Positions 11,512 to 34,458 of a stretch of DNA of 39,837 bases are shown here, piece after piece. Numbering within the stretch: position 1 is the first letter of the stretch; the number at the start of each line of letters is the position of its first letter. Position numbers and translations under genes: made by a program. The stretch comes from a virus: UHGV virus genome UHGV-0025829; one strand, 5' to 3'. The notes below the pieces were generated by a model that saw nothing but the letters and a program-made list of their open reading frames with translations, ran no database searches and was not told the DNA's origin.

Positions 11512-11842
11512 ATCAGCAGCAGAGCGCAAAGCCGCTCAGAGAGCCAGACAAGCTGCATCCGGTGTACGTAAGCTGGAGATTGTGCTTGATGCTCAGGAAA
11601 TTGAAATGCTGGAGCGTAACTGTGCCACTCGTCGCCCCGGGCGTGCACCTTACGAATTTGGTGAGTATATCGCGTTACTGATCCGCCAGGATGATGTACG
11701 CGTGCGCGGGCGTATAAAATCGATCAGCAGAAAACGTTGCGGTAAGTGCGGCGAGAGAGTTCCTGTGAATTCATGCCCGTGTAATGGTGACTCGCAATGC
11801 TGGGTGACTAAAGGCTGGCATGAAACGAAATTAATAGTGTGA
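11504..11842 (+). CDS. Hypothetical protein with basic N-terminus and C-terminal Cys4 zinc-ribbon-like motif
   Basis: CGKCGERVPVNSCPCNGDSQC; last gene before the late operon. Confidence 0.45.
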   Translation: MAKSAAERKAAQRARQAASGVRKLEIVLDAQEIEMLERNCATRRPGRAPYEFGEYIALLIRQDDVRVRGRIKSISRKRCGKCGERVPVNSCPCNGDSQCWVTKGWHETKLIV

Positions 11843-11850
11843 CATGTCAC
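11839..11850. repeat. 12-bp perfect palindrome GTGACATGTCAC (copy 1 of 3)
   Basis: Exact sequence also at 14290..14301 and 32086..32097. Confidence 0.7.
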
Positions 11851-12072
11851 GAATGTGTTATGCCAAAAATACGCTACGACCTTGAAGATATGAGAGATAA
11901 CTCAGCAAATTTTCCGAAAGAGGTTAAATTTCTCATGCATAAGTATGGTTGCGCCAGGAGGGATATAGTTATCGACAGTCACCACCCTTGCGGCGAGGAT
12001 GTAATTTTCATTCGCGGTAAATGGGAAGGGTATCTTGACGAGAGTTTTTACGATGAATTTGATGGACTTTGA
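11839..12072 (+). CDS. Hypothetical protein (start uncertain: GTG 11839 or ATG 11860)
   Basis: ORF ends 26 bp before terminator; GTG start would coincide with the GTGACATGTCAC palindrome. Confidence 0.4.
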   Translation: MTCHECVMPKIRYDLEDMRDNSANFPKEVKFLMHKYGCARRDIVIDSHHPCGEDVIFIRGKWEGYLDESFYDEFDGL

Positions 12073-12077
12073 ATACT

Positions 12078-12103
12078 GCCGCCAACTATGGCGGCTTTAT
12101 TTT
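12078..12103 (+). terminator. Rho-independent terminator separating early genes from the terminase operon
   Basis: Stem GCCGCC/GGCGGC, loop AACTAT, then TTTATTTT. Confidence 0.65.
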
Positions 12104-12114
12104 GCATGGTACTA

Positions 12115-12129
12115 TTACCATAACGGTAA
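12115..12129. promoter_or_regulatory. Operator palindrome TTACCATAACGGTAA upstream of terminase small subunit (plus degenerate copy 12133..12147)
   Basis: Perfect half-sites 21 bp before the terS ATG. Confidence 0.55.
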
Positions 12130-12149
12130 CAATTACCAGGGTGGTTATT

Positions 12150-12743
12150 ATGCCTGCTGAACCTAAAACCTATAAACGCAAATCAACGCAATTTAAGCCG
12201 CTCACAGCAATGCAGGAGGCTTATTGCCAGTCATACATCAAAACGCCTGAAAACCAGACTCAGGCAGCGATTAACGCAGGATTCTCCCCAAATACAGCGG
12301 CAGTTAAAGCCAGCGTCATGATGCGCGATGAACGCATTCAAAAACGGATTGCCGAGTTGATGGAAGAGCGCAACAAACGAATGCGCGTCAGTGCTGATTA
12401 CGTTCTCATGCGCCTGGTGGAGATCGACCAGATGGACGTGATTGATATCCTCAACGACGATGGGAGTCTTAAGCCAATCCGCGAGTGGCCGAAAATATGG
12501 CGCACTACGCTTAGCGGCTTTGATCTGTCATCGACCATCATGAACATGAACGAGGACTCGATAGAGACAATCCTCAAAAAAATTAAATGGCCTGACAAGG
12601 TGAAGAACCTAGAACTGATTGGTAAGCACGTCGACGTCAACGCATTTAAAGAACGCCTGGATGTTAATGTGAATGTGACAATTGCTGATCGCATAGCAGC
12701 AGCCAGGAAGAGACTGAAAGAACGTCAGGATGGCAATCAGTGA
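12150..12743 (+). CDS. Terminase small subunit
   Basis: Immediately upstream of and overlapping the large subunit; LTAMQEAYCQSYIKTPENQTQAAINAGFSP resembles the Terminase_2 family. Confidence 0.75.
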   Translation: MPAEPKTYKRKSTQFKPLTAMQEAYCQSYIKTPENQTQAAINAGFSPNTAAVKASVMMRDERIQKRIAELMEERNKRMRVSADYVLMRLVEIDQMDVIDILNDDGSLKPIREWPKIWRTTLSGFDLSSTIMNMNEDSIETILKKIKWPDKVKNLELIGKHVDVNAFKERLDVNVNVTIADRIAAARKRLKERQDGNQ

Positions 12744-14215
12744 CAGATGCAGCGTTATCTCCTGAAGAGCAGTTGATCGAGGATATTGCAGGGTTTACTC
12801 ACGATCCGCTTGGTTATGCCCTCTATGCGTTCCCGTGGGGGGAAGAGGGGACTGAACTGGCACATGCTACCGGACCACGTCAGTGGCAGGCCGATGCGTT
12901 CCGAGAGATACGTGATCACCTGCAGAATCCCGAGACGCGCTATCAGCCGCTTATGCTGGCACGTGCTTCGGGTCACGGTATTGGTAAATCAGCACTCATC
13001 TCAATGTTGATCAACTGGGGCATGTCCACTTGCGAGGATTGTAAGGTCGTGGTGACCGCCAACACCGACAACCAGCTACGAACGAAGACCTGGCCGGAAA
13101 TTATCAAGTGGTCAAACCTTGCTATCACGAAAGACTGGTTTACCTGTACCGCTACCGCGATGTACAGCAATGACCCTGGGCACGACAAGCGGTGGCGAGC
13201 TGACGCAATCCCTTGGTCTGAGCACAACACTGAGGCATTCGCCGGACTACACAACGAGCGCAAACGCATCATCGTGGTATTCGATGAAGCGTCGAACATT
13301 GCCGATCTGGTGTGGGAGGTAGCAGAGGGTGCGCTGACGGACGAAGACACCGAAATCATCTGGGTGGCGTTCGGGAACCCGACGCGTAACACCGGGCGTT
13401 TCCGTGAATGTTTCCGCAAGTACAAACACCGCTGGAAGTGTGCGCAGATTGACAGCCGGACGGTGGAAGGCACTAACAAACAGCAGTTGCAGAAATGGGT
13501 TGATGACTACGGGGAAGACAGCGACTTCGTTAAAATCCGTGTGCGCGGCATATTCCCTGATGCATCTGAATTGCAGTTTATCCCTACCGGTCTTACTGAT
13601 GAGGCAATGAAACGGGTGGTAACCGCTGCGCAGGTTGCACATGCTCCGGTGATAATCGGCGTTGACCCGGCATACTCAGGCGTTGATGACGCGGTGATAT
13701 ACCTGCGGCAGGGGCTGCACAGTAAGGTGCTGTGGACTGGCAACAAGACTACTGACGATCTGATTATGGCGAAGCGTATCGCTGACTTTGAAGACCAGTA
13801 CCAGGCTGACGCAGTGTTCATCGACTTCGGTTACGGAACTGGTCTGAAGTCAATCGGTGACGGCTGGGGTCGTACATGGCAACTTGTTCCGTTCGGTGGC
13901 GCGTCTACTGACCCGCAGATGCTCAATAAGCGCGGGGAGATGTTCAACTCATGCAAGACATGGCTGAGGCTGGGCGGCATGCTTGATGACCAGGAAACAG
14001 CGGACGACCTGTCGGCGGCAGAGTACAAAGTTCGAGTGGACGGTAAAATCGTTATCGAACCGAAGGAAGATATCAAGGAGCGGCTTGGGCGTTCTCCTGG
14101 TAAAGGCGATGCGCTATTGCTGACGTTTGCTTTCCCTGTGTCGAAGCGTCTGCGAATTCCAGGTCAGCAGAACCAGCAAGGCAAGGCCATTACAGATTAC
14201 GATCCCTATGCTTAA
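12740..14215 (+). CDS. Terminase large subunit
   Basis: GTG start overlapping terS stop; ATPase Walker A-like ARASGHGIGKSALI; 491 aa. Confidence 0.85.
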   Translation: MTDAALSPEEQLIEDIAGFTHDPLGYALYAFPWGEEGTELAHATGPRQWQADAFREIRDHLQNPETRYQPLMLARASGHGIGKSALISMLINWGMSTCEDCKVVVTANTDNQLRTKTWPEIIKWSNLAITKDWFTCTATAMYSNDPGHDKRWRADAIPWSEHNTEAFAGLHNERKRIIVVFDEASNIADLVWEVAEGALTDEDTEIIWVAFGNPTRNTGRFRECFRKYKHRWKCAQIDSRTVEGTNKQQLQKWVDDYGEDSDFVKIRVRGIFPDASELQFIPTGLTDEAMKRVVTAAQVAHAPVIIGVDPAYSGVDDAVIYLRQGLHSKVLWTGNKTTDDLIMAKRIADFEDQYQADAVFIDFGYGTGLKSIGDGWGRTWQLVPFGGASTDPQMLNKRGEMFNSCKTWLRLGGMLDDQETADDLSAAEYKVRVDGKIVIEPKEDIKERLGRSPGKGDALLLTFAFPVSKRLRIPGQQNQQGKAITDYDPYA

Positions 14216-14265
14216 TCCGCTGGTGGGGATAATGTCGTTGATATCCTCTGGTGAGGATAAAACAA

Positions 14266-14285
14266 AGCCAGTTCATAGGCTGGCT
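14266..14285. terminator. Bidirectional terminator hairpin between convergent terL and minus-strand ORF
   Basis: Stem AGCCAG/CTGGCT flanked by T-rich sequence on both strands. Confidence 0.5.
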
Positions 14286-14289
14286 GTTT

Positions 14290-14301
14290 GTGACATGTCA
14301 C
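14290..14301. repeat. 12-bp perfect palindrome GTGACATGTCAC (copy 2 of 3)
   Basis: Exact match; lies between ORF stop and terminator. Confidence 0.7.
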
Positions 14302-14305
14302 GGTG

Positions 14306-14677
14306 TTATTGCTCGCTTAACTTCTGCTTCAGCAAGTAACCTTCAAGCATCCAGATTTTGTTTACAGCATTCTGCCGGGCAATCTTCCGACCAATTTCTG
14401 CATCAAAGTTTTCCTGGCTTGCACAGGCGCTCTCTCCGGTGACGGTGAAGCCGTTGCGCAGCACCAGGACGCAGAACGTCAGCAGAGAAAGTGATTCGTG
14501 CGGCTGGTAGTTTACCTCTCCGCCAGTATGTTTCGCTTTTATGGCTTTGCCAAAGGCACCATCCTCTGCTGTGAAATATGCCTCCTGAGCAATAATGCTT
14601 TCGATATGGTCTGGCGTAACGCGCGGAGCAGTTTTGCCTTTCTCAACGATTTCTTTTTCGATTTGCTGGTCGTTCAT
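14306..14677 (-). CDS. Hypothetical moron protein
   Basis: 123 aa on the opposite strand to the flanking late genes; AAGGTGA SD; downstream of the tRNA on the same strand. Confidence 0.55.
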   Translation of the reverse strand: MNDQQIEKEIVEKGKTAPRVTPDHIESIIAQEAYFTAEDGAFGKAIKAKHTGGEVNYQPHESLSLLTFCVLVLRNGFTVTGESACASQENFDAEIGRKIARQNAVNKIWMLEGYLLKQKLSEQ

Positions 14678-14875
14678 AATCTCACCTTAAAAAAATGCCC
14701 GGCGAACCGGGCGAACTGGAAGCAATGAGTTATGCCTTCCGTGGCTGTACTGGTTTACAGCATGAAGTCATCGCAATGGCGTCCTGCTGTAAAAAGGGCG
14801 GTGATAGTCCTTCAAGGGAAACCATCACCGCCAAGCCCCTGGAACTTCTGGCATCACGGTCCTTAGGCGTGATTC

Positions 14876-14952
14876 TGGCGTGGCATGCAGGATTCGAACC
14901 TGCGACCAACCGCTTAGAAGGCGGTTGCTCTGTCCAACTGAGCTAATGCCAC
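14876..14952 (-). tRNA. tRNA-Arg (anticodon UCU)
   Basis: Reverse complement folds as a cloverleaf: acceptor GTGGCAT/ATGCCAC, anticodon loop CTTCTAA, T-loop GGTTCGAATCC, 3-prime GCCA. Confidence 0.85.
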
Positions 14953-15274
14953 AACGCTGAGAGCACTTAGCCTGTTAAGGCACCACACTTTGTCGCGGCT
15001 CCATAAATGCTCTCATCGTTGTACCCTCGTCTCTTCCGAGGTGTCACACCGAATCGCCGGGATGGTGAATCCCCGTGCGCGGAATAAAACCGCTTGACTT
15101 GCACATTCCGGCTACCTGGTTCGTTTGCCCGAGCAAGGGAGGGTGCCACTTAAACGTACCCAGACCGCTATCGGCGCATGTGCCATACGCCGTACTGCTC
15201 AAAATAAAAGCTCACTCCACCTGTTCAATTTAACGACAAGCCAGTCAGGTTAGTAACCGTAATGAACTCTTTGC

Positions 15275-15289
15275 TTACCTGAAAGGTAA
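15275..15289. promoter_or_regulatory. Operator palindrome TTACCTGAAAGGTAA upstream of the virion operon
   Basis: Perfect motif copy about 90 bp before the 15380 start. Confidence 0.55.
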
Positions 15290-15379
15290 TAATTCGTGCG
15301 TTAAATGTCAACCATCTACGATAAATAAATCATATATGGTTAAATTGGTAATAATTTAATTGCGTACGGAGTCATTGAT

Positions 15380-15586
15380 ATGTGCATGGGTAGCTCACCA
15401 TCAGTGCCTGCAACACCAGAAGTTCAGGCAGCACCACAGGAGCAGGATGCCGCCGTTGTTGATGCCCGCGATGAAGAAACTCGTCGCCGTCGCGCTGCTG
15501 CTGGTCGTAGTTCTACGCTGCTTACCGGTTCTCAGGGCGACACATCAACCGCTAATACCAGCGGTAAAACGCTGCTTGGTCAGTAA
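15380..15586 (+). CDS. Small low-complexity virion protein, T7 gp6.7-like
   Basis: Starts MC...; Ser/Thr/Gly-rich; sits directly before the portal gene, as gp6.7 does in T7 (recalled). Confidence 0.4.
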   Translation: MCMGSSPSVPATPEVQAAPQEQDAAVVDARDEETRRRRAAAGRSSTLLTGSQGDTSTANTSGKTLLGQ

Positions 15587-15600
15587 CCGGAGTCATTGAA

Positions 15601-17280
15601 ATGGCGGAAACAACTAAAGAGCGATTGAACAAACAGTTCGCACAACTTGAAAGCGAGCGTCAGTCGTTCGAGCCGCACTGGCGCGAGTTGAGTGATTACA
15701 TCAACCCGCGTGGTTCCCGCTTTCTGACTTCTGAGGTCAACCGTAACGATCGACGCAATACGCGCATTATTGATTCGACCGGGACTATGGCGGCGCGTAC
15801 TCTCGCCAGCGGCATGATGTCTGGTATCACAAGCCCCGCCCGTCCGTGGTTTCGCCTGGCTACGCCAGATCCTGAAATGATGGATTATGGCCCTGTTAAG
15901 TTGTGGCTTGAAGCGGTGCAGAACCGCATGAACGATATGTTCAATAAGTCGAATCTCTACCAGTCTCTTCCGCAGTTATACGGAAGCCTCGGCACATACA
16001 GCACTGGTGCAATGGCGGTGCTGGAGGATGACGAGGACATCATTCGCACAATGCCATTCCCGATAGGCAGTTACTACCTGGCTAACTCACCTCGTGGCAG
16101 TGTGGACACCTGTTTTCGCAAGTTCTCTATGACTGTTCGTCAGCTTGTTCAGGAGTTCGGGCTAAATAACGTCAGCGAATCCGTAAAAAGCATGTGGGAA
16201 AGCGGCACCTACGAGAAGTGGATTGAAGTGATGCATTCGGTTTACCCGAACATTGACCGCGATACATCGAAGCTGGATAGCAAGAACAAGCCATTCAAAT
16301 CGGTTTATTACGAGGTTGGTGGCGATAACGACAAGTTGTTGCGTGAGTCCGGATTCGATGAGTTTCCAATTATGGCTCCGCGCTGGGAAGTTAACGGCGA
16401 AGATGTTTATGGATCATCATGCCCGGGTATGCTGGCGCTTGGACCTGTTAAGGCATTGCAGCTTCTCCAGAAGCGCAAGTCGCAGTTGATTGATAAAGCC
16501 ACCAATCCGCCGATGGTTGCTCCGACTTCCCTCAAGAATCAGCGCGCCTCCCTTCTTCCTGGCGACATCACGTATATCGATCAGATTACTGGTCAGGATG
16601 GTTTCAGGCCTGCTTATCTGGTTAACCCCAGTACAGCAGATCTGGTGGCAGACATTCAGGACACTCGCCAAATCATTAACAGCGCCTACTTTGTCGATCT
16701 GTTCATGATGTTGCATAACATCAATACCCGCTCGATGCCTGTTGAAGCAGTGATCGAAATGAAAGAAGAAAAACTTCTGATGTTGGGGCCGGTTCTGGAG
16801 CGTCTGAACGACGAATGTCTTAATCCTCTCATTGACCGCGCTTTCTCGATGATGGTGCGTAAAAACATGCTGCCACCACCGCCTGACGCGATGGAAGGTA
16901 TGCCCCTGAAGGTCGAATACATTTCCGTCATGGCTCAGGCGCAGAAGTCTATCGGCCTGTCCAGTCTGGCATCCACGGTCAACTTCATTGGTCAACTTGC
17001 GCAAGCGAAACCAGAAGCTCTCGACAAACTCAACGTTGATCAGGCGATCGATGCATTCGCTGATATGTCCGGAGTGTCTCCAACCGTCATTGTTCCGCAG
17101 GAACAGGTTGAGCAGGCTCGCCAGCAACGGGCACAGCAGCAACAGCAGCAACAAATGATGGCGATGGGGATGGCGGCGGCACAGGGTGCCAAGACGCTAA
17201 GCGAAGCTAAAACTTCGGATCCGAGTGTTTTGTCAGCTATGGCGAATGCAGTTAGTGGTCAGGGTGGGCAATCACAATGA
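15601..17280 (+). CDS. Portal (head-to-tail connector) protein, T7 gp8-like
   Basis: 559 aa after terminase; Gln/Ala/Met-rich C-terminal tail (QQRAQQQQQQQMMAMGMAAAQGA) resembles the T7 gp8 C-terminus as recalled. Confidence 0.75.
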   Translation: MAETTKERLNKQFAQLESERQSFEPHWRELSDYINPRGSRFLTSEVNRNDRRNTRIIDSTGTMAARTLASGMMSGITSPARPWFRLATPDPEMMDYGPVKLWLEAVQNRMNDMFNKSNLYQSLPQLYGSLGTYSTGAMAVLEDDEDIIRTMPFPIGSYYLANSPRGSVDTCFRKFSMTVRQLVQEFGLNNVSESVKSMWESGTYEKWIEVMHSVYPNIDRDTSKLDSKNKPFKSVYYEVGGDNDKLLRESGFDEFPIMAPRWEVNGEDVYGSSCPGMLALGPVKALQLLQKRKSQLIDKATNPPMVAPTSLKNQRASLLPGDITYIDQITGQDGFRPAYLVNPSTADLVADIQDTRQIINSAYFVDLFMMLHNINTRSMPVEAVIEMKEEKLLMLGPVLERLNDECLNPLIDRAFSMMVRKNMLPPPPDAMEGMPLKVEYISVMAQAQKSIGLSSLASTVNFIGQLAQAKPEALDKLNVDQAIDAFADMSGVSPTVIVPQEQVEQARQQRAQQQQQQQMMAMGMAAAQGAKTLSEAKTSDPSVLSAMANAVSGQGGQSQ

Positions 17281-17573
17281 CAGATTACGAAGACGATCAA
17301 CTGAAAGAAGAAAACGCCCGTAAGCAACGTGACATGGCGCAGCGTGAAATTGATGACATTCGCTTTGTCATGAGCAGTGAACAGGGGCGTCGCGTTGTCT
17401 GGTCGGTGCTGGAGAAAGGCCGTGTGTTTTCCGCTATCTCACCGATGGACGCTATGGCAATGGCATTTAATGAGGGGCAACGCAATCTGGCGCTGGAACT
17501 GTTTCAGCGCGTTATGGCGCATTGCCCTGAACAGTATTTGAAGATGGCCAAAGAGGCCAGTGAACAGGAGTGA
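17277..17573 (+). CDS. Hypothetical protein between portal and scaffold
   Basis: ATGA overlap with the portal stop; 98 aa. Confidence 0.5.
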   Translation: MTDYEDDQLKEENARKQRDMAQREIDDIRFVMSSEQGRRVVWSVLEKGRVFSAISPMDAMAMAFNEGQRNLALELFQRVMAHCPEQYLKMAKEASEQE

Positions 17574-17575
17574 TC

Positions 17576-18271
17576 ATGAATTTATTTGAGCGTTTGCTGT
17601 ATCGCCGTCTTTGCAATGAGCAGCCAGTCGATGGTGGAGCAGCTCCGGCTGCGTCAGAACCGTCAGCGCCTGCAGGTGATCCCCCTGCTCCAGTTGGTGA
17701 TCCATCACAACAGGAAGGTGATAAGCCACAACCTGTTGCTGATGGCGATAAACCTGCTGATGACAAAAAGCCTGAAAACGATAAGCAGGATGAAAAAAAG
17801 GGCGGCGATAAACCAGATGGTGCGCCTGAGAAGTACGAGTTTCAGGCTGCCGAAGGCGTAGAGCTGGATACAGAAGCGTTGAAGGAATTCGAGCCGGTGG
17901 CGCGTGAACTAAACCTGACCAACGAGCAAGCGCAAAAGCTGGTTGATGCTTATCCGAAGATTCTGGCAGGTGTGCAGCAGCGCCAGGCAGAAGCCTGGCA
18001 GAAAACAACCGAGCAGTGGGCTGCGGATGTAAAAGCTGACAAAGAAATCGGTGGCGACAAGTTGATTTCTAACCTTAGCGCCGCACAGCGTGCGCTTGAC
18101 CAGTTCGGGACACCTGAACTCAAAGAATATCTGAACACCACCGGACTGGGTAATCACCCTGACCTGGTCAAAACGTTCGTGAAAATCGGAAAGGCGATGT
18201 CTGAAGATGGCATGGTCACCGGTGGTAATGAAGGCCAGCGTAGTGCGGCCGAAGTGCTCTATGGCAAATAA
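17576..18271 (+). CDS. Scaffolding protein
   Basis: Acidic, Pro/Ala-rich N-terminal half and helical C-terminus; immediately precedes the capsid gene; AGGAG SD. Confidence 0.6.
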   Translation: MNLFERLLYRRLCNEQPVDGGAAPAASEPSAPAGDPPAPVGDPSQQEGDKPQPVADGDKPADDKKPENDKQDEKKGGDKPDGAPEKYEFQAAEGVELDTEALKEFEPVARELNLTNEQAQKLVDAYPKILAGVQQRQAEAWQKTTEQWAADVKADKEIGGDKLISNLSAAQRALDQFGTPELKEYLNTTGLGNHPDLVKTFVKIGKAMSEDGMVTGGNEGQRSAAEVLYGK

Positions 18272-18285
18272 GAGAGGAAATGACA

Positions 18286-19272
18286 ATGGCTGTTAAAGGC
18301 TTAACTGCGCTAACGCTGGCTGACTGGGGTAAGCGCGTCGATCCAAACGGGAAAGTCGATAAGATTATCGAACTTCTCGGTCAAACTAACCCGATCCTTC
18401 AGGATATGCCTTTTGTCGAAGGGAACCTTCCTACCGGACACCGAACCACCATTCGTTCTGGTTTACCTTCAGCTACCTGGCGTTTGCTGAACTATGGCGT
18501 ACAGCCAAGCAAATCAACCACAGTGCAGGTCACCGATTCCGTTGGCATGCTGGAAACCTATGCTGAAGTCGATAAGTCACTGGCTGATCTGAACGGTAAT
18601 ACCGCCGAATTCCGCCTGTCTGAAGACCGCGCATTTATTGAAGCGATGAATCAGCAGATGGCGCAGACGTTGTTTTATGGTGATTCCAGCGTTAACCCTC
18701 AGCAGTTTATGGGGCTGTCCTCCCGCTATTCCAGCCTGTCTGCGGGTAATGCTCAGAACATCATTGATGCTGGTGGCACGGGTACAGATAACACCTCAAT
18801 CTGGTTAGTGGTGTGGGGCGAAAACACCGTGCATGGCATCTTCCCGAAAGGGCAGAAGGCTGGCATCCAGATGGAAGATAAAGGCCAGGTGACACTGGAA
18901 GATGCGAATGGTGGCAAGTACGAAGGCTACCGTACCCATTACAAATGGGACAACGGGCTTGCTCTGCGTGACTGGCGTTATGTTGTTCGCATTGCAAACA
19001 TCGATGTCAGCAATCTTTCAGAACCTTCCTCTGCCGCAAATATTGCGAAGTTGATGGTTAAAGCACTGCATCGCATTCCAAATCGTGGCATGGGTCGCCC
19101 GGTGTTCTACATGAACCGCACTGTAGGCCAGGCTCTTGATCTGCAATCTCTGGAGAAAACATCTCTGGCGATCAGCGTAAAAGAGACAGAAGGCGAGTGG
19201 TGGACTTCATTCCGTGGTGTACCAATCCGTGAAACTGATGCGCTTCTGGAAACAGAAGCCCGCGTGGTGTAA
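18286..19272 (+). CDS. Major capsid protein
   Basis: About 330 aa following the scaffold; followed by a stem-loop at 19289..19308; start taken at the second ATG for SD spacing. Confidence 0.7.
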   Translation: MAVKGLTALTLADWGKRVDPNGKVDKIIELLGQTNPILQDMPFVEGNLPTGHRTTIRSGLPSATWRLLNYGVQPSKSTTVQVTDSVGMLETYAEVDKSLADLNGNTAEFRLSEDRAFIEAMNQQMAQTLFYGDSSVNPQQFMGLSSRYSSLSAGNAQNIIDAGGTGTDNTSIWLVVWGENTVHGIFPKGQKAGIQMEDKGQVTLEDANGGKYEGYRTHYKWDNGLALRDWRYVVRIANIDVSNLSEPSSAANIAKLMVKALHRIPNRGMGRPVFYMNRTVGQALDLQSLEKTSLAISVKETEGEWWTSFRGVPIRETDALLETEARVV

Positions 19273-19323
19273 CGCCTGTTATTAACCTGTGGGTCGTAAC
19301 AGACCCACTAATGGAGAAAGAAG

Positions 19324-19761
19324 ATGATCACCGACAAACTGTTGATGTTCTCCGAAGCTCAGGCGGTTACGAATACCGCGGCTTCTACTGACGTAATCGA
19401 TCTCGGTCCAATTGACGGAAACCGTCGCGATATCGGTGTGGGTTACCCGCTTGAGTTTTGGGTGCTGGTTAACGAAGCCGCCACGGCAAGTGGTGAGGCA
19501 ACTGTAAACATCCAGTTGCAGACGAGTGAGAATAACAGCTCATGGTCCACTATTTATGATAGTGGCGCACTGGCAAAGGCTACCCTGACAGCAGGTAAAC
19601 GAGTTGTTTCTGCAAAGGTGCCTGCCGGTGTTCAGCGATATCTGCGTGTTAACTACTCCGTCGCAACTGGCCCACTAACGGCCGGCAAATTCACTGCGGG
19701 TATCAGTCTGGATGTTGATGCCAATACACCGTACCCGATCCGCTCAAAAGTAACTGGTTAA
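19324..19761 (+). CDS. Hypothetical virion protein (possible capsid decoration)
   Basis: 145 aa, Thr/Ser/Ala/Gly-rich, directly after the capsid gene. Confidence 0.45.
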   Translation: MITDKLLMFSEAQAVTNTAASTDVIDLGPIDGNRRDIGVGYPLEFWVLVNEAATASGEATVNIQLQTSENNSSWSTIYDSGALAKATLTAGKRVVSAKVPAGVQRYLRVNYSVATGPLTAGKFTAGISLDVDANTPYPIRSKVTG

Positions 19762-19771
19762 GGTGATATTG

Positions 19772-20107
19772 ATGTCAGGTGAGAAACCAAGATACCGCGT
19801 TCTGCGCCTCTCTCTTATCCATAACACTCTGTGGCCGGAGGGGGCAGAAATCGAATACGAAGGTGAGCCTGGTAGCGCACTGGAACCTGTTAACGATGCA
19901 GCCAGACAGGCAAAAGCAAAAGTTGCAGGAAAGGTGTCAATGGCAGCAACCAGCACCAAAATCATCAACGATGTGTCAGATGATGGTGAACTGGATAAGC
20001 TCCGTGAAGAGTACGAATTGCTCTTTAACGAGAGGCCACACCATAACGCCAAAGCCGAAACGCTCCGCGAGAAGATCGCAGATAAGCGTAAAGAACTGGG
20101 CGTGTAA
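19772..20107 (+). CDS. Hypothetical virion-module protein
   Basis: ATG with AGGTGA SD; 111 aa. Confidence 0.45.
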   Translation: MSGEKPRYRVLRLSLIHNTLWPEGAEIEYEGEPGSALEPVNDAARQAKAKVAGKVSMAATSTKIINDVSDDGELDKLREEYELLFNERPHHNAKAETLREKIADKRKELGV

Positions 20108-20124
20108 GCCTCGCGAATCAGACA

Positions 20125-20146
20125 AGGGGCTTCGGCCCCTTTATTG
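20125..20146 (+). terminator. Terminator-like hairpin inside the late operon
   Basis: AGGGGC-TTCG-GCCCCT followed by TTATT. Confidence 0.45.
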
Positions 20147-20157
20147 CAGGAGTGTAT

Positions 20158-23557: not shown

Positions 23558-24021
23558 TGATCGACGTTCAAATTATTCCCGCTACCGAAGAGCATCTTCA
23601 GATGATTTTGCCGGATGTTCGTCAGGCTGATATTGACGAACTGTATGCGGTATCACTGATGACTACCGAAGATGCGCTGCGTGTTGGTCTTCGCACTGCG
23701 ACTATGGCCTGGTCAGGGTTCGCGAACGGAGAACTGGTAACCATGTTTGGTGTATCTCCGGCGTCAATGATCGGTGGCAATGGTACACCCTGGCTGGTCG
23801 GAACCAGCCGTATTGAAAAATATCAGAAGACATTTCTTCGCCACTGCCGCCCTGTATTGCAGCAGATGCTGGCAGTTTATCCGCGCCTGGAAAACTACGT
23901 CGACGAAAGAAACCATGTTGCCAAAGCATGGCTGCACTGGCTTGGATTCAGGCTTGAAGAAGCCGCGCCTTATGGCGCTCTTGGTCTTAATTTCCACAGA
24001 TTTCACATGGAGAGAAAATAA
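23557..24021 (+). CDS. Internal virion protein (gp13-like by position)
   Basis: 154 aa, translationally coupled. Confidence 0.4.
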   Translation: MIDVQIIPATEEHLQMILPDVRQADIDELYAVSLMTTEDALRVGLRTATMAWSGFANGELVTMFGVSPASMIGGNGTPWLVGTSRIEKYQKTFLRHCRPVLQQMLAVYPRLENYVDERNHVAKAWLHWLGFRLEEAAPYGALGLNFHRFHMERK

Positions 24022-24560
24022 TGTGTAACCCAGCCATCGCTTTGGTTGCCGTCACAGTGGCATCCACAGCCGCGTCAATGTACAGCCAGAGCAAGCAGGC
24101 AAAATACCAGTCAGCCATAGCTGATCGGAATGCTGAAATTGCTGAAGCTCAGGCACAGGATTCAATCAATCGTGGGAATATTGAAGCGGATCAGCGTCGT
24201 CGTGAAATGCGTCAACGCTCAGGCACTACGGCGGCCACTATGGGGGCTACCGGTGCGGAATTAAGTAGCGGAACAGCTCTTGACGTTTTTGCGGATAATG
24301 CTCAGTTCGGCACTCTTGATGCGTTAACGACAGTGAATAATGCTCAGCGTGAGGCATATGGGTATCAGGTACAGGGAATGAATGCTCAGGCACAGGGGGC
24401 TGCTGCTCAGTCGGCTGCTAAATCATCGATGACCAGCACTTTGTTAACGGCACCACTAAAAGCATACGGTGCATACCAGATGGGCGGGGGAACGTGGAGC
24501 CCGTTCTCTCAGAAGGCTGCGCCGATTTCTGCTGCTGTTGGCACTCCAACCGGTCGATAA
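24021..24560 (+). CDS. Internal virion / ejection protein (gp14-like by position)
   Basis: 179 aa, Ala/Gln-rich with hydrophobic N-terminus. Confidence 0.4.
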   Translation: MCNPAIALVAVTVASTAASMYSQSKQAKYQSAIADRNAEIAEAQAQDSINRGNIEADQRRREMRQRSGTTAATMGATGAELSSGTALDVFADNAQFGTLDALTTVNNAQREAYGYQVQGMNAQAQGAAAQSAAKSSMTSTLLTAPLKAYGAYQMGGGTWSPFSQKAAPISAAVGTPTGR

Positions 24561-24572
24561 GGGGATAATAAG

Positions 24573-27380
24573 ATGCCAGTTGTACCAACAACATCGGGCC
24601 GTCAGGTTCAGAGCAGAGGGATTTCGACGCAGGGATTCTCATCGTTTCAGACACCAAATGTCGGTGATGTACTTGGCGATGTTGCAGAGCAATATGCAGG
24701 TATTATTGCGCAGGCAAAACAGCGTGCGAATGTTGCTATGGCTCAGGATGCTTCTCTTAGCTTAAGCCAGATAAGCAGCGATCTGCTGAATAACCCTGAA
24801 ACAGGTTTGCTTAACCTGAAAGGGAAAAATGCTATTGGAAAAGGTCAGGAGTATACGCAGCAGTTTGATGCTCAGATCGAACAACTGGCTATGTCGCTGC
24901 CGGATGAACAGGCTCGTAATGCTTTCATGCAGCAGGCGCAGCAGCAGCGTATTCAGTTCACTACGCAGGCCGGGCGGCACGAGATAGGGCAAATAAATGC
25001 CTACGAAGAAGGCCAGTTTCAGGCGACGCTGCTGAACAATGGTAAAAATGCCGCAGCATTGTATGGCGACAATGCCGCATACGTATTGGCTAATAAGCAA
25101 ACTTTCCAGCAAATTGAGGATTACGGCATTGCACATGGCTGGAGCGACGAGCAAATACAGGCCAAGAAAATCGAGTTTAAAGAGAAGGTTGCTGATGCCG
25201 CATTGTCCCAGTGGTCGGCAAACAATGCGACCGCATTCATCCAAAGTAATGGCGAGTTAAGTGATACTGCTGCTGGATCAAAGCGGGCTATTGTTAATCC
25301 TTATGGTGGAGAGCCAAAGTCCACAAAGGGAATGGTTGTTCAAGGAAATATTAATCTCTTCAACCGCCCATCTGTCAAAAATGAAGATGGGACTATCAGT
25401 ACCGTTCGAACAATTTCTATAGGCACGGAAGCTGGAGAAGTTCTCATTCCCACCGTCAGTGATGATGGAAAATTGCTTTCCGATGACGAAGCTATTGCTC
25501 TGTATGAAAAAACTGGAAAACACCTTGGAATATTCGATAACCCTGAGAATGCGACCGCCTATGCTGAGAAACTTCACGAACAGCAGGATCAGTATTACGT
25601 AAAAGGTGGTGCTCGCGGTATCCGTAATAACAACCCAGGAAATCTCGAATACAGCAAAACTAATCCGTGGGTAGGCCAGACCGGTGATGATGGTCGATTT
25701 GCTAAATTCGAAACACCTGAACACGGGATTCGTGCATTAGGGCGGAACCTGATGTCGTATCAGAGGCAGGGTATTGATACCGTCAGCGAGATAATTAATC
25801 GCTGGGCACCGCCTACTGATAAAAATGACACTATGTCGTATATCAAAGCAGTGTGCGAACAACTTGGCGTTTCTGCTGATGAGCCTCTCGATGCATCTAA
25901 TCCTGATACCCTGAAGGCGCTTTGTGCAGCCATTATCCATCATGAGAACGGTGGCCAGCCATACAGTGATCAGCAGTTAACTGCTGGTGTCAGTGCAGCA
26001 CTTGGTTTATCAACAATTCCAACCAACACCAAACGCTATACCGGTAATGCAGCATTCGATGCGGCATCTCCTGAGGCGCAGGCAAGTTTTATGCGACAGG
26101 CGGATCAACTGCGTCGGCAGCAGCAGGCTGAATATAAAACGATGATTGACAGCCAGGTTCGCGATGCGACAGCTGCGTATATGCGTGGCGTTGAATTTCC
26201 TAACCCACCTGGTGAGGCTGATTTTATTGCAGCTTATGGAGTCAGAGAAGGAAACCTGCGATATACCGAGTTCAGAAATACGCAAATCGCCGGACAGTAT
26301 ATAGGCTCTTTCCGCAACATGCCGACAAGCAGCATTACAGCATATGTTGAGCGATTACGCCCGGATACTGGTGAGACAGGGGAGGGTTATGCGGCACGAG
26401 CCGCTCTTTATGACAACGTTGTGTCGGCTGCAAGTCAGGTGATAAAGCAGCGACAGGCTGATCCTGTACAGTTCTCTCTTGCCGCCGGACAGGCAAAGCC
26501 TATCGACATGAGCAATAAGGATAACTTTGGACAGAGCGTTGCCTTGCGTGCTGCTCAGGTCAGTGACCTTGCTAAGTCATATGGCACTCCACTGACGTTC
26601 TTTTCCAAAGACGAGGCCAATCAGATCGGTGTTTTCTTTCGTGATGCGCCCGTTTCCCAACAGGCAGCATATCTCGATACCATCAGGCAGAGCACTGGTG
26701 GTGGGCAGGTGTATATGTCAGCACTACAGCAGATCAGTGCCAACGCTCCATCTGCTGCCGTTGCCGGGATACTGATGGATAAGCCAGGTGGTATTTTGGC
26801 AGAAAAAAACTGGTTTAATCCGGATGTTTCCGTGTCTCCTGAAACCGCTGCGCAGACAATTCTTGCTGGCGCGGCGGCTCGTAAAGGTACTGATGACGCG
26901 AAAGGTATTCCGATGCCTAAAGATGCTGATCTTCGCTTTGAGTTTTCTGACATGGTGAAGGATGCATTTGCTGGTGATGCTCAGGGGGCATCAATGGCGT
27001 ACGAGATCGCAAAGGACTATTACGCTGGTGTGATGGCGAAAAAAGGCGTGGTATCAGGCGAAATTGACAATGATATCTGGAAACAGGCTGTTAACGTAGC
27101 TACAGGTGGCGTGCATGACTATAACGGAATGGGGAATGTTCTTTTGCCGTGGGGAATGTCTGCAGAGCAATTCGATAAGCAGGTTAATCAGGCTTGGAAT
27201 GAACAAGTTGTTGGCACAGGGATAAAAACACCGCCTGGTCAGTATGGTTTGCAAAGTTACGGCGATAGTCAGTACCTGGTGAAACTTGGTACTGGTTATC
27301 TGCTAAAAGATGATGGTTCTCCCGTTGTTCTTGATCTGACACAGAAGCGTCAGAGATTCTCCGGAGATATTCCGCAATGA
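24573..27380 (+). CDS. Large internal virion (ejection) protein with an AT-rich inserted domain
   Basis: 935 aa; compositionally distinct segment around 25260..25750. Confidence 0.55.
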
Positions 27381-29179
27381 GTTACTTTGGCCTTAATCCA
27401 GTAAACCAGAATCAGCAGCTTGACGAAGCAGCATCAAATCCAGTTGTCTTTAACAGCGATGTTGGTTTTTTCGACAATGCTGTAGGAGCGGCATTGTCTG
27501 GTTTGTACTCCGGGCTGGTGGCAAAGCCAGATCAGTTGCTCTGGGCAGGGATGGATAAAATCGTATCCCCGATTGCTCAGTTTGTTAACGAAAACACCTC
27601 GATCAATGACACTTCAGTTTCATACATTGCCGAGCAGAGAAAACTAGCAGAGCAGCAGGTTAAGCGGCTGACGCCTGATGCCGCGACAACCGGAACCGCC
27701 GGGCAGGTTCTTTATGGGTTGTTCGATATGGGCGGGCAGGCTGTTGTCGGTACAACGCTCGGTGGTCCTGTCGGAGGTGCAGCGGCGGTAACTTCGCTAC
27801 AGGGTTTTTCTGAGTTTGAACGGCTGACAGCACAGGGTGTTGATTTCAGGACGGCGCAGGAAGCGGGATTAGTGCAGGGCATTACTGCTGGTGCCGGAAC
27901 ACTGATCCCTATGAGCCTCGGGTTACGTGCTGGTGGTGCGCTGGCGGAAGGTGTGGCGGCTCAGCTTGCGCGGACGGGTGAGAGTTCAGTGCGACGCGCC
28001 GCAGCAACAGCAGTACGTGCAACGCCAGATATTGCCTATGCCGCAGGTACAAATATTGCGTTCGGTATGGCACAGCGTGGGCTTACTGCAAAAACGCTTC
28101 GTGATGGTGGCTATAGCGAAATGGCTAACCAGTATGATGTGTTGGATCGACAGGCAATTGCTATTGATGCTGTTCTTGGGGTGGCGTTTGGTGGTGTCGG
28201 CAGATTTATTAACTCTCGCGGCGAGTCTACAAACGCACCAAATTTTTCACCAGTTGATATCGATGCTGCACTGGCGGCGAATGCCGCTCATCATGCTGAA
28301 ATTGATATTGCGCCCGGCGTGCCGATCAACGTGCTTTCGCGCAATTCTCACATTCAGGCTCTGCGAAAAGCTATGTCTGATGTTAGCCAGGGGAGACCTG
28401 TAGACGTTGCCAGCATTGTTGAGTCTGCATCTTTCAGTGAAATTCCTGGGCGCAAGAGTCTGCTGTCTCAGGCAGTTAATGAGGCTCTGTCATCTGTAAA
28501 TGATGGAGTAACGGCGCGCGCTATAGAAAATCGGTTGCTTGAAGAACAGGCCGCGCAGCTTTTGCCGCGTGGCGATAGACAGGTTTACCAGTCTGAAATC
28601 GCTAATAGCCAACGAATTATTGAAAATCTCACTGAACAGCGCGCACAAATTCTTGCAGAAGAGTCAACCGGCAGCGGTAAAGCTTTGTCTCGTGCTCGAT
28701 CAGATAAACAGGTCAGACTTCGCGATATTGACCAACGAATCCGGCAGGCACAAGAACGCCTGGAATTTTCCCGTAACGCGTTGGCACCGCATGAGCCTGG
28801 CGGTCAGTTTTTTGAAGCTCGAGCAGAACTGGCACGGAGACAGCAGGCTGAAAGTGAACTTAATGCTCAGGCTGTTTCATTCTATAAAACAGCAGAGGTC
28901 AGGACGCCAGACGAAGTAGCTCCTTTTGAGCCCGGTAAGATATTGCAACAGACAGAACAAAAAATGATGGCAGATCCGGCAGGAGATATTGATCTGCGTA
29001 TAGCTGAAGACTCGCTGCTTGAATCTCCGGACATGATAATCACCGTGCTGGATGATGATGGTAATCCACAATCGCGCAGTGCGCGTGAAGTACTGGATGA
29101 AGCGAACAGGGAAAGTGAGCAGGCAATACAGGATTCCAGCCTGTTTGATGTCGCTGTGGCGTGTTTCTTGAGAGGTTAA
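27377..29179 (+). CDS. Internal virion (ejection) protein
   Basis: 600 aa, ATGA overlap with the upstream gene; Ala/Gly-rich N-terminal half. Confidence 0.5.
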
Positions 29180-29184
29180 ATTAA

Positions 29185-31659
29185 ATGAGACAGGAATGTA
29201 TACAAGCGGTCCAGCAGGCGGCGCAGCGCACGTTAACGGCGCGAGAAATACAGAACATTGAAGACCGCATTTATCGAAATATGCGCTCCATTGCTCGTGA
29301 TGACCCGATGTCGTGGAGACAACTTTCCGAATCAGAGCGGCTATATCGTGCAGCACAATTGGCATCTGAAGAATTACAGCGAGAAGCGGCATTAAAGAAA
29401 CGTCGTGTGGCCCTCACTATAGCCGCACGTCAGAGATTGGATAAATTTATCAATAGCTATCAAGGGGCTGATGGGAAACTTGGCGCTCTTAACCGTACTA
29501 TTGCTTTTAATGCAGACGGTAAATCGAATTTCCTCTCTGTTGAGTCCAGAACAAAAGCCACTCGTGATTATGCATTGAGTCAATTGCAGGAGGCATTCGA
29601 AGCAGTTGATCCTCGCTTTTTTGGTCTGTTTGAAGATGAAGCGGGCGTACGTGACCTGGTATATGAAATGCGAGGGCAAAATACTGGCAATGCTAAAGCA
29701 AGAAAAGGTGCTAAGGCGTGGAGAGAAGTGACAGATCTACTGCGCCGCCGGTTTAATGATGCTGGTGGGGACATTGGCTATCTCGAAAACTGGGGAATCC
29801 CTCAACATCATTCTATGGAAAAGGTTGGGGCGGTATCAAAGGATAAGTGGGTTAGCGATGTTATAGGTAAGCTGGATCGCAAATATTATATCCGAGCCGA
29901 TGGACAACTGATGAACGATGCCGAGTTGTCTGCATTTCTTGGAGAGGCTTATAACACGATCGCTACTGGTGGGCTGAATAAGCTTACTGATACCGGAATG
30001 CGAATTTCCGGCGCACGTGCTAACCGTGGTAATGCATCACGACAGATACATTTCAAAGATGCAGATTCCTATCTGCAATATCAGCAACTTTATGGCGATC
30101 GCTCTCTATGGGAAATCATGGTCGGTCACCTGGAAGGTATCAGTAAAGATATTGCACTGGTGGAAACATATGGCCCAAACCCTGATCATGTTTTCCGCTC
30201 TCTTCTTGATCAGGTGAAGGCAGAAACGGCAACAGCTAACCCGAGTAAAACCGGTAGCGTCGAGCGGCTGGCGAACAAAACAGAGAACCTGTACAACTTT
30301 ATTTCCGGAAAGACACAGCCTGTTGCGAATCCTCACATCGCGCGCTGGTCTGACAATATCAGAAACTGGCTGGTTGCCAGCAGGCTCGGATCCGCGTTGC
30401 TGTCATCGTTCTCTGATCTTGGAACCATATATCTGTCTGCGAAGGTTACCAACCTTCCAATGAACCAGTTATTCCGCAACCAGCTTGAAGCTATGGACCC
30501 AACGAACCGTACTGAGCTTGCGCGGGCGCGCCGCGCTGGTCTGGCGATGGAATCTCTACTTGGCAGCGTTAACCGCTGGGCGATGGATAATATGGGGCCG
30601 TCTGTGTCTCGTTGGGCGGCAACGGCGGTAATGCGTGCCAGTGGACTTACAGCATGGTCAGATGCGCACAAGCGCGCTTATGGCGTAACCATGATGGGAA
30701 GCCTGGGAGAAGTAGTGTCACGGACACCAGACCTTCGTAGCCTCGATGACTCTGATTTTCGTATCCTGAAAAGCAAAGGGATTACTGACACAGACTGGAG
30801 CGTATGGAAGCTGGCGCAACAGGAGGACTGGGGGAACGGTAATAATACGATGCTGACACCGGAAAGCATTATGCGTATCCCTGATTCAGCAGTTAAACAT
30901 CTTGGTGAGCCTGAACGTGTGAAATTTGAGGCAATGCGTAAACTGCTCGGTGCCGTAACTGAAGAAGTTGATATGGCTGTTATTACACCGGGCGCACGTG
31001 AACAGATGTTCGTAGGGTCTGGTCTTCAGCGTGGAACATGGAAAGGTGAATTAACGAGAAGTGTTTTCCTGTTTAAATCGTTCCCTATCTCGGTAGTTAT
31101 GCGTCACTGGCATAGAGCTATGGGGATGCCGTCTGCTGGTGGGCGTGCGGCATATATAGCAACGTTTTTAGCAAGCACAACCATGCTTGGTGCTCTTTCC
31201 ATGCAGATTACTGATCTTATTAATGGGAGAAATCCAAAAGAAATGACCGGTGACAACATGGTTAAATTCTGGATAAATGCATTTTTAAAAGGTGGTGGGG
31301 CAGGGTTGTATGGTGATTTTCTTTTCTCTGACCACACCAGGTACGGGAGCGGCGCACTAGCGTCGATGCTTGGCCCGGTAGCTGGTCTGGTTGATGACGT
31401 AGTGAAGATTGCTCAGGGCATACCGTTAAATGCTGTGGAAGGGAAGAATGAGCAGACTGGTGGTGATTTGGTTAAGCTTGGGAAAGGTTTGATGCCTGGT
31501 GCGAATCTCTGGTATTTGAAGGCGGCTCTCGATCACATGATCTTTAACCAGATGCAGGAGTATTTTTCACCAGGCTATTTGCGTAAAATGGAGCAACGTT
31601 CAAAGAAAGAGTTTAACCAGACATACTGGTGGCGACCTCAGGATGTCACTCCGCAATAA
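29185..31659 (+). CDS. Large internal virion (ejection) protein
   Basis: 824 aa with GAGAGG SD; last gene of the core-protein block. Confidence 0.5.
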   Translation: MRQECIQAVQQAAQRTLTAREIQNIEDRIYRNMRSIARDDPMSWRQLSESERLYRAAQLASEELQREAALKKRRVALTIAARQRLDKFINSYQGADGKLGALNRTIAFNADGKSNFLSVESRTKATRDYALSQLQEAFEAVDPRFFGLFEDEAGVRDLVYEMRGQNTGNAKARKGAKAWREVTDLLRRRFNDAGGDIGYLENWGIPQHHSMEKVGAVSKDKWVSDVIGKLDRKYYIRADGQLMNDAELSAFLGEAYNTIATGGLNKLTDTGMRISGARANRGNASRQIHFKDADSYLQYQQLYGDRSLWEIMVGHLEGISKDIALVETYGPNPDHVFRSLLDQVKAETATANPSKTGSVERLANKTENLYNFISGKTQPVANPHIARWSDNIRNWLVASRLGSALLSSFSDLGTIYLSAKVTNLPMNQLFRNQLEAMDPTNRTELARARRAGLAMESLLGSVNRWAMDNMGPSVSRWAATAVMRASGLTAWSDAHKRAYGVTMMGSLGEVVSRTPDLRSLDDSDFRILKSKGITDTDWSVWKLAQQEDWGNGNNTMLTPESIMRIPDSAVKHLGEPERVKFEAMRKLLGAVTEEVDMAVITPGAREQMFVGSGLQRGTWKGELTRSVFLFKSFPISVVMRHWHRAMGMPSAGGRAAYIATFLASTTMLGALSMQITDLINGRNPKEMTGDNMVKFWINAFLKGGGAGLYGDFLFSDHTRYGSGALASMLGPVAGLVDDVVKIAQGIPLNAVEGKNEQTGGDLVKLGKGLMPGANLWYLKAALDHMIFNQMQEYFSPGYLRKMEQRSKKEFNQTYWWRPQDVTPQ

Positions 31660-31668
31660 GGAACAACA

Positions 31669-32082
31669 ATGAAGGAATTATTGCTGTTATCGGTATTTTT
31701 GATATCCGCTTGCTCGACATCCTATGATGTTTATGACGGTGTTGATAAGGCATATTGCGACAAAGTTAAAATGGATTTTTCTCTTGCCAAGACGGCGAAG
31801 GATAGTTGTATTGATCACTACGTCAAGACTTATACCAAGCCAGCCTCATCGGCATCTGATATTGCTGAAGGTGCTGTGTTTGAGTGTAACAAGGTGATAT
31901 CCATCGCAGCGAGTTCTTCATACGATGCTGCTGTATGTGCAATGGCTGAAAGAAACGGCATGTCAGTGCAAAAAATTAATAGCATGATAAGCAGTAATGA
32001 CGAAGCCAAAATAAGAACTGATATCAGCTCGGTGAAAAAAGATGCCATGAACAGAGTTGTAAAATATCAGTCATCTTTATAA
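31669..32082 (+). CDS. Lipoprotein (candidate superinfection-exclusion / moron)
   Basis: Signal peptide MKELLLLSVFLISAC with lipobox; six Cys in the mature part. Confidence 0.6.
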   Translation: MKELLLLSVFLISACSTSYDVYDGVDKAYCDKVKMDFSLAKTAKDSCIDHYVKTYTKPASSASDIAEGAVFECNKVISIAASSSYDAAVCAMAERNGMSVQKINSMISSNDEAKIRTDISSVKKDAMNRVVKYQSSL

Positions 32083-32085
32083 GTC

Positions 32086-32097
32086 GTGACATGTCAC
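32086..32097. repeat. 12-bp perfect palindrome GTGACATGTCAC (copy 3 of 3)
   Basis: Exact match 4 bp after the lipoprotein stop and directly before the terminator. Confidence 0.7.
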
Positions 32098-32098
32098 A

Positions 32099-32122
32099 GG
32101 CCGCTTTCGCGGCCTTGTTTTT
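32099..32122 (+). terminator. Rho-independent terminator ending the late virion operon
   Basis: GGCCGC-TTTC-GCGGCC followed by TTGTTTTT. Confidence 0.7.
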
Positions 32123-34421: not shown

Positions 34422-34458
34422 GCAAATAATTTGTTTGCTATCCAGCACGTTTTGCAAA

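Follow-up and report, generated by a model that had tools for sequence, protein, structure and literature searches.

A conserved 14-bp palindrome at transcription-unit ends of a Uetakevirus prophage and its candidate ribbon-helix-helix/zinc-ribbon binder

The palindrome and the layout of its locus

The virus genome UHGV-0025829, a stretch of 39,837 nucleotides (nt) analysed here as a whole (hereinafter the window), is an epsilon15/phiV10-like (Uetakevirus) prophage in which the 12-bp perfect palindrome GTGACATGTCAC has three exact copies, those at 11839..11850, 14290..14301 and 32086..32097, and no others. When the unit layout is read from the annotation of phiV10 and epsilon15, the three copies mark the 3′ ends of consecutive plus-strand units, namely the early-right, terminase and structural units, which bears out the original prediction that they lie at operon boundaries. 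We posit below, at somewhat less than even confidence, that the palindrome is the operator of a predicted ribbon-helix-helix (RHH)/zinc-ribbon protein, whose candidate gene ends in the first copy, and that it serves as a barrier or insulator at the boundaries of these units. The features central to this proposal, including several open reading frames (ORFs), are the following:

11504..11842, plus strand: gene of the 112-aa candidate binder (epsilon15 gp49/phiV10 p55/N15 gp46 family, PHROG 536), an early gene
11838..11851, no strand assigned: site 1, TGTGACATGTCACG, closing the early-right unit at its 3′ end; the TGA stop (11840..11842) of ORF 11504..11842 falls inside it
12078..12103, plus strand: intrinsic terminator closing the early-right unit, GCCGCCAACTATGGCGGC and then a T-run (hairpin 12078..12095); an annotated terminator in epsilon15
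14266..14285, minus strand: terminator hairpin by site 2, with a good T-run on the minus strand and a poor one on the plus strand
14289..14302, no strand assigned: site 2, TGTGACATGTCACG, with the terL terminator hairpin on one side and, on the other, the stop of a cargo gene on the minus strand
32085..32098, no strand assigned: site 3, CGTGACATGTCACA, at the end of the structural unit, abutting the terminator hairpin 32098..32115
32098..32123, plus strand: intrinsic terminator of the structural unit, immediately after site 3

Site 1 closes the early-right operon, whose final gene codes for the 112-aa protein annotated as a ‘transcriptional regulator’ (p55 in phiV10, gp49 in epsilon15), while site 2 follows the terminase genes and site 3 the final gene of the long structural operon. 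Site 2 is 75 nt past the terL stop and has the hairpin at 14266..14285 on one side and the TAA stop (14306..14308) of ORF 14306..14677, on the minus strand, on the other, each at a distance of 4 nt. At site 3, the TAA stop (32080..32082) of ORF 31669..32082, the final ORF of the structural unit, comes 3 nt ahead of the motif. Each copy is thus next to or on a stop codon, and two of them (sites 2 and 3) stand beside intrinsic terminators, as had been noticed at the outset.

The recurrence is not a product of base composition: none of 100 dinucleotide-preserving shuffles of the window gave a single copy of GTGACATGTCAC, and by simple arithmetic the uniform expectation for a 12-bp palindrome in 39.8 kb is about 0.002. 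Allowing up to two mismatches adds only the matches at 17329 and 35014. The 12-mer is itself the core of a conserved unit of 14 bp, YGTGACNNGTCACR, with the consensus YGTGAC-NN-GTCACR (Y, pyrimidine; R, purine; N, any base), the left flank being a pyrimidine and the right flank a purine at every copy in the window; this 14-mer has four matches in the window as against 0.26 expected. The degenerate copy at 17329..17340 (GTGACATGGCGC) lies inside a structural gene and reads GTGACATGGCAC in phiV10 (L001 5306..5317; L numbers denote sequences in our comparison). P2-like prophages (L085 14424) also have GTGACATGGCAC, as a conserved auxiliary site at a distance of 32 bp from the main one.

Several known elements were compared with the motif and set aside. 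The window arrangement is TGTGA-N4-TCAC(A/G), as opposed to the TGTGA-N6-TCACA of CRP, and there is no sequence match to the LexA box (CTGT-N8-ACAG), so that the early remark that the spacing suits neither factor holds. The prophage-repressor operator (ATTACC-N5-GGTAAT) differs from it in sequence. The motif is not itself an intrinsic terminator, as it lies outside the hairpins and flanks the terminators at sites 2 and 3. Finally, the four GCGACC-NN-GGTCGC repeats of N15, which we take to be the SopB-bound sites of the Sop centromere, are at positions other than the three GTGAC-NN-GTCAC sites of that phage.

An RNA element in the 3′ untranslated region, acting as a small hairpin stacked on the terminator or as a processing or stability signal, would fit with the transcription of the motif at the end of three units and with the 4-bp GUGA/UCAC hairpin that is predicted at sites 2 and 3 immediately 5′ to the terminator hairpin. 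However, the stem has only 4 bp and none is predicted at site 1; the half-sites are invariant with no compensatory changes, while the flanks vary as independent Y and R positions that include the unpairable combination C...A; and the predicted fold of the associated protein is one that binds double-stranded DNA. Such an element is, in our estimate, extremely improbable. Rather, the invariant half-sites, the independent Y/R flanks and the fixed spacer point to recognition by a dimeric protein.

Conservation in close relatives

The original prediction had named positional conservation among relatives as its test, and the copies are present at equivalent positions there. Epsilon15, at about 76–80% identity, has exactly three copies at homologous places, as do SPN1S and HEMP4 with three each; in phiV10 the count is two, also at homologous places, as the cut of its linear record falls at site 1. 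Of 80 close viral contigs, 78 extend to site 1 and 77 of them keep it, and the site is equally placed in epsilon15, SPN1S, HEMP4 and the Klebsiella phage Kp4865-1. Site 2 could be scored in 70, of which 54 have it exactly and seven more carry single-base variants. The arrangement at site 3 is repeated in phiV10, epsilon15, SPN1S and HEMP4.

In Kp4865-1 a TTGACT promoter-like hexamer and a perfect LexA box, CTGTTTAAATATACAG, directly follow site 1 (L096 12709..12770), this being the only true LexA box we encountered next to the motif. From its sequence, a unit under SOS control appears to start there immediately behind the motif.

The 112-aa protein and its family

The protein encoded at 11504..11842 has no family match in Pfam, NCBIfam or the sequences of the PDB, and PHROG 536, to which it belongs, is labelled only ‘transcriptional regulator’. 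An AlphaFold2 model built on an alignment of 56 homologues is confident (pLDDT 90.6). It runs from a basic N-terminal helix through an extended segment and two helices to a Cys-rich loop and closes with a short C-terminal helix; C79 and C82 of the loop are invariant, and C91/C93 and C99 are conserved. The model has an RHH DNA-binding fold, of a form that agrees with the definition of the RHH superfamily, joined to a Cys-rich zinc ribbon. Of 50,697 phage records, only 152 have a member of this family, which also occurs in many prophages.

Profile searches against the PDB with the C-terminal helix and zinc ribbon (residues 48–109) gave marginal matches to TraR (E 0.035) and YbiI (E 0.036), and hhalign returned a weak match to TraR with a probability of 49%. 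TraR is an RNA-polymerase-binding zinc-finger protein. The DksA/TraR profile PF01258 does not match the protein and structural comparison also revealed no TraR-like match; the similarity to TraR is marginal and lacks structural support.

The gene and the site co-occur across unrelated phages

An exhaustive profile search provided distant homologues, with identities as low as about 30%, which were traced to their contigs; their sites have the same half-sites and the same 2-bp spacer. In the telomere phage N15, the site of gp46 (34% identity) is GTGACTGGTCAC over the stop codon, with two more copies elsewhere in that genome. In Mu-like phages the motif lies in frame inside the 3′ end of the gene as a C-terminal extension (VTGH), and in P2-like prophages it lies downstream of the gene, at the junction with the portal gene, in 34 of 37 loci. 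The site is on the stop or 1–3 nt past it in L086, L088, L093 and ZF40 (1–3 nt past in ZF40 and L086) and 10 nt past it in L079, L082 and L083. Since the motif can thus stand 10 nt or 1–3 nt beyond the stop, or form an in-frame extension, it is not a by-product of coding. Prophages of Aeromonas, Marinomonas, Pseudoalteromonas and Psychromonas have the site 0–33 nt past the gene, and two Pseudomonas prophages have it at the 5′ end of the gene. In L084 and Vibrio K303, copies precede the terS start by 19–23 nt. L091 also shows the association, with two tandem sites in a convergent junction. Some sites are intragenic, namely in N15 repA, in a parA-like gene of L084 and in the tail-fibre gene.

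We pooled one representative from each of 25 lineages (458 kb in all) and took the expectation from base composition. Sites with a 2-bp spacer number 39 against 0.40 expected, those with spacers of 0, 1 and 3–6 bp number 0–3 each, and the everted arrangement 0–1; the flanks are Y...R at 37 of the 39. A site is present in 22 of the lineages and lies no more than 60 nt from the 3′ end of the gene in 16. Within 6 kb on either side, no other protein family is common to these loci. Conversely, when viral contigs were scanned for TGTGACATGTCACA, 120 stretches of 2–15 kb were retrieved and genes were scored inside each stretch; 32 (27%) encode a family member, and 17 of these repeat the geometry of site 1 of the window, with the core 12-mer beginning 2 nt ahead of the final base of the gene's stop codon.

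The half-sites are those of matS, the target of the host protein MatP, and some occurrences have no family member nearby, both of which would fit with binding of the motif by a host protein, MatP or another. The matS consensus is 13 bp, GTGAC-R-N-Y-GTCAC, with a 3-bp spacer (PMC3603311), and matS was absent from all prophages examined in the published survey (PMC3603311). In our 25 lineages, by contrast, 39 of the 45 matches to GTGAC-Nk-GTCAC have a 2-bp spacer and three a 3-bp spacer, and all window sites are of the 2-bp kind. The strictness of this spacer tells against MatP itself. Moreover, the pair of gene and site reaches prophages of Pseudomonas and Marinomonas, hosts that are outside the clade known to have MatP, and the site follows the 3′ end of a phage gene in 16 of the 25 lineages. 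We thus regard a host binder as highly improbable.

A cognate operator and a boundary barrier

Among the natures that the original prediction had entertained, a binding site for a phage factor is therefore favoured and in part supported, with the product of 11504..11842 as the candidate that can now be named; a host factor is unlikely, the case for an RNA element is weak, and we found nothing that speaks for a DNA-modifying enzyme. We infer both that this protein is the binder and that its binding acts as a barrier, and give the two together a little less than an even chance. Under this proposal, a small dimer-forming RHH early protein would bind a 14-bp palindromic operator, and the gene and its site would travel as a module with one site at or just past the 3′ end of the gene and one to three further sites elsewhere. 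The bound protein would then be a physical barrier or insulator at unit boundaries, limiting read-through and convergent or antisense transcription across the junctions, and the site at the end of its own gene would throttle downstream expression.

RHH proteins are mostly repressors. Sites 2 and 3 are squeezed to within 0–4 nt of a hairpin and 3–4 nt of a stop codon, and hence are not promoter operators. At both, the good T-run of the hairpin faces away from the motif; thus, a polymerase arriving from the T-run side would meet a hairpin devoid of a T-run and then the site. The site of the P2-like phages occupies the junction where early operon and portal gene converge; it is accompanied by a degenerate partner at a distance of 32 bp and, about 21 nt further, by a half-site. 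We read the second N15 site, from its sequence, as lying between the end of gene 33 and a putative promoter of the antirepressor operon. It is on account of these squeezed sites, the repressor operators with which each following unit starts, the convergent junctions of the P2-like loci and L091, and the second N15 site that we favour a barrier. LacI bound at the 3′ end of lacI offers a precedent for a roadblock at the end of a binder's own gene.

The main rival is a protein of the lambda Q type, which would bind the site, board the passing RNA polymerase, override the next terminator and thereby turn on the late genes. In Uetakeviruses, L084, L088, L093 and the K303-type phages, the gene comes last among the early genes and is immediately followed by a terminator and then by the terminase or late genes, which is the position of Q in lambda. 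At sites 1 and 3 the site precedes the terminator along the direction of transcription; the annotation of phiV10 and epsilon15 offers no other late regulator; the C-terminal half of the protein has the faint TraR-like similarity described above; and the sites of L084 and K303 are placed just ahead of terS. Nevertheless, the 112-aa protein has no sequence match to Q families in Pfam, NCBIfam or the PDB, and the family is also present in N15, which has an annotated Q-like gene, and in Mu-like and P2-like phages, which own the late regulators Mor/C and Ogr, respectively. Further, neither site 2 nor the P2-like junction suits loading of this type. On balance, we hold Q-like loading to be unlikely. 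As for activation more generally, the -35 hexamer starts at a variable distance of about 6 to 50 nt past the motif, which led us to reject a fixed activator geometry, and promoter-like sequence follows only six of 19 gene-proximal sites.

A second rival with a bound phage protein is an organiser akin to MatP, in which dimers or tetramers would bridge the sites and loop the phage genome, for example into terminase and structural loops, with the intergenic placement being incidental. The presence of only one to four sites per genome, the gene-then-site layout reminiscent of parB-parS modules and the intragenic sites listed above would agree with this. However, hhalign gave a probability of 0.45% against a MatP sequence not drawn from a database record, and the model has a zinc ribbon in place of the four-helix bundle and coiled coil that characterize MatP. 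There is no support for oligomerisation, and the strong bias of the sites for gene ends and junctions is not predicted by such bridging. We judge this organiser decidedly unlikely.

Several observations count against the operator-and-barrier proposal. The pairing of protein and site rests on co-occurrence, and three of the 25 lineages lack a perfect site. In the reverse scan, 88 of the 120 stretches encode no family member inside the 2–15 kb retrieved. These include Uetakevirus site-2 or site-3 copies and P2-like sites, and we tentatively read others as coding coincidences (e.g., VTCHTC codons) or chance; on a rough estimate, chance matches to the 14-mer are expected in a collection of tens of Gb. 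In a lambdoid group, the 14-mer spans the stop of a cro-like gene and the ATG of the next gene with no family member in the stretch (e.g., L173 5371..5384, and the related L154, L155, L169, L186, L239, L246, L260 and L263). Family-wide, adjacency to terminators is only about 2.6-fold enriched by a crude home-made finder, and the sites of several lineages run directly into a Shine-Dalgarno sequence and ATG or into promoter-like sequence. A protein bound upstream of a terminator would be passed before termination, making it unclear whether anything is gained that way. Lastly, site 2 may be dispensable, as it has decayed by point mutation in about 10% of the close relatives.

Comparison with known systems

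A regulator paired with an operator is a known kind of system, of which the present case would be a variant, distinguished by the fusion of the RHH domain to a zinc ribbon, a site at the 3′ end of the binder's gene, a location at the ends of operons and the borders of hotspots, and a spread over phage types that are unrelated. The predicted fold and the short palindromic target are shared with RHH regulators such as Arc and Mnt of P22, CopG, omega, ParG and antitoxins; those act at promoters or centromeres and lack a zinc ribbon, whereas the phage sites are mostly at gene 3′ ends or in short intercistronic gaps. MatP/matS, which organises the E. coli Ter macrodomain, is likewise an RHH-domain binder with few, dispersed, high-specificity sites built from the same half-sites GTGAC and GTCAC. 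It differs in its 13-bp site with a 3-bp R-N-Y spacer as against a 2-bp spacer (12-bp core, 14 bp with flanks), in the insignificant sequence similarity of the two proteins, and in that the phage sites are at gene ends of phage genomes.

The stoperators of mycobacteriophage L5, bound by gp71, also occupy the boundaries of genes or operons instead of promoters and presumably stop polymerase during elongation. They are asymmetric 13-bp elements in about 20–30 copies, orientation-dependent and bound by a helix-turn-helix immunity repressor in the lysogen, unlike the three to four symmetric sites seen here, which have a presumed early lytic RHH binder in a phage whose repressor has separate operators. 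The LacI site resembles ours in lying at the end of the binder's gene, where LacI arrests polymerase, but the phage protein has another fold and biological setting. The lambda Q/PR′ region is similar in that the DNA site of the regulator comes immediately after the regulator's gene and is itself succeeded by a terminator and the late genes; the present family differs in having no homology to Q, no convincing conserved embedded promoter and extra sites at the far ends of units.

Mosaic junctions and accessory genes

The sites also coincide with breakpoints of homology among relatives. The accessory elements in question, along with a candidate further site and other neighbouring features, are the following:

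11860..12072, plus strand: accessory 70-aa ORF (PHROG 1541) between site 1 and the terminator; only an 8-codon remnant in many relatives
12114..12148, no strand assigned: two prophage-repressor operator-like sites (ATTACC-N5-GGTAAY) upstream of terS; the homologous epsilon15 site is annotated as a repressor binding site
14306..14677, minus strand: swappable cargo ORF, N4 gp49/Sf6 gp66 family (PF13876), its 3′ end facing site 2
14876..14952, minus strand: tRNA-Arg (anticodon TCT) in the variable stretch that separates the structural unit from the terminase genes, overlapping the plus-strand ORF 14695..14946
35013..35026, no strand assigned: candidate fourth site, CGTGACCCGTCACA, with a different centre, in the N-terminal part of the tail-fibre gene

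In the window, 227 nt separate site 1 from its terminator owing to the insertion of the 70-aa ORF, as compared to a few tens of nt in relatives without it. This ORF ends in ...YDEFDGL, and the remnant that follows site 1 in many relatives is MHDEFDGF; a similar mini-ORF (MKYEFDGF or MKDEFDRF) is found beside site 2 in L016 and epsilon15, so that remnants of one small gene family flank two copies of the motif. The site-2 cassette (14302..14673) is swapped with ORF-level precision, its other side being a conserved region with the promoter and ribosome-binding site.

These patterns raise the prospect that the motif is a recombination or cassette-exchange junction, either through a site-directed activity or through a bound protein that stalls forks and so causes breaks. 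Homology among relatives ends 0–10 nt past the right edge of site 2 and resumes at the start codon of the cargo, and at least six different cargo ORFs, or the 8-codon remnant, fill this slot in close relatives. To the left of site 3, the window, phiV10/SPN1S, epsilon15 and HEMP4 have different genes; the right flank of the P2-like loci, which we take to be the P2 cargo hotspot, diverges straight after the motif in 22 variants; and the 8-codon remnants beside sites 1 and 2 belong to one small gene family. On the other hand, the other border of the site-2 cassette, the start codon of the cargo, has no motif, 5-bp arms with a 2-bp spacer are too small for the known core sites of tyrosine or serine recombinases, and the Uetakeviruses have no associated recombinase besides the integrase. 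Functional elements are, moreover, expected to persist at mosaic junctions regardless. The motif may cause these breakpoints or may simply survive at them, and we consider exchange at the motif improbable.

The candidate fourth site has a counterpart in Kp4865-1 (L096 36317). It lies in conserved coding sequence, and any function of it is inseparable from coding constraint.

Operators, promoters and recombinases near the sites

Palindromes resembling the repressor operator (ATTACC-N5-GGTAAT, with up to two mismatches) number 13 in the window against about one expected, at 209, 5964, 6026, 6738, 7123, 9069, 9131, 12114, 12132, 15274, 33017, 34078 and 34458. They reach beyond the immunity region, with copies just upstream of terS at 12114 and 12132, of the structural unit at 15274 and of the tail-fibre gene at 34458, such that operators are found at the start of the unit that follows each copy of the motif. 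Their placement suggests that each late unit is under direct control of the repressor.

Downstream of the family gene, L088, L136, L138 and L149 share a conserved GGTTTTACAC between -35-like and -10-like hexamers, about 40–60 nt past the gene-proximal site or the gene end, in prophages of Paraglaciecola, Aeromonas and Pseudomonas. It may represent a late promoter equipped with an element for regulator binding. A gene for a tyrosine recombinase stands midway in the early-right operon of several marine or plasmid-like prophages, with the family gene following one to four genes later (L084 8193..9431, L088 8688..9968, L093 7102..8379 and L151 562..1794), which is an unusual place for an integrase.

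Implications

The literature that we searched, including that on epsilon15, SPC32H, N15 and matS in prophages, yielded nothing on the motif, its degenerate form or the function of the family. A broader proposal, to which we attach only tentative belief and which we consider doubtful, is that the RHH/zinc-ribbon gene and its 14-bp site form a portable, previously unrecognised module that sets protein-dependent genome boundaries across temperate phages. Its hosts would comprise Uetakeviruses, telomere phages, Mu-like and P2-like phages, and marine and pseudomonad prophages, wherein it might insulate transcription units and the borders of cargo or defence hotspots, or else loop the genome in a MatP-like manner. 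By analogy, it might then be seen as a phage counterpart of eukaryotic insulators or of terminator-binding proteins.

If the pairing of protein and site is true, it would provide a DNA target and a role for a family hitherto annotated as ‘hypothetical’ or ‘transcriptional regulator’. Diverse temperate phages would then share a boundary element at operon ends and at the edges of accessory- and defence-gene hotspots, with a bearing both on the shielding of lytic transcription from prophage-expressed cargo and on where mosaic junctions fall. The 14-bp site is a practical marker for such junctions and, should the protein prove to be a strong roadblock, the pair would offer a compact synthetic insulator.

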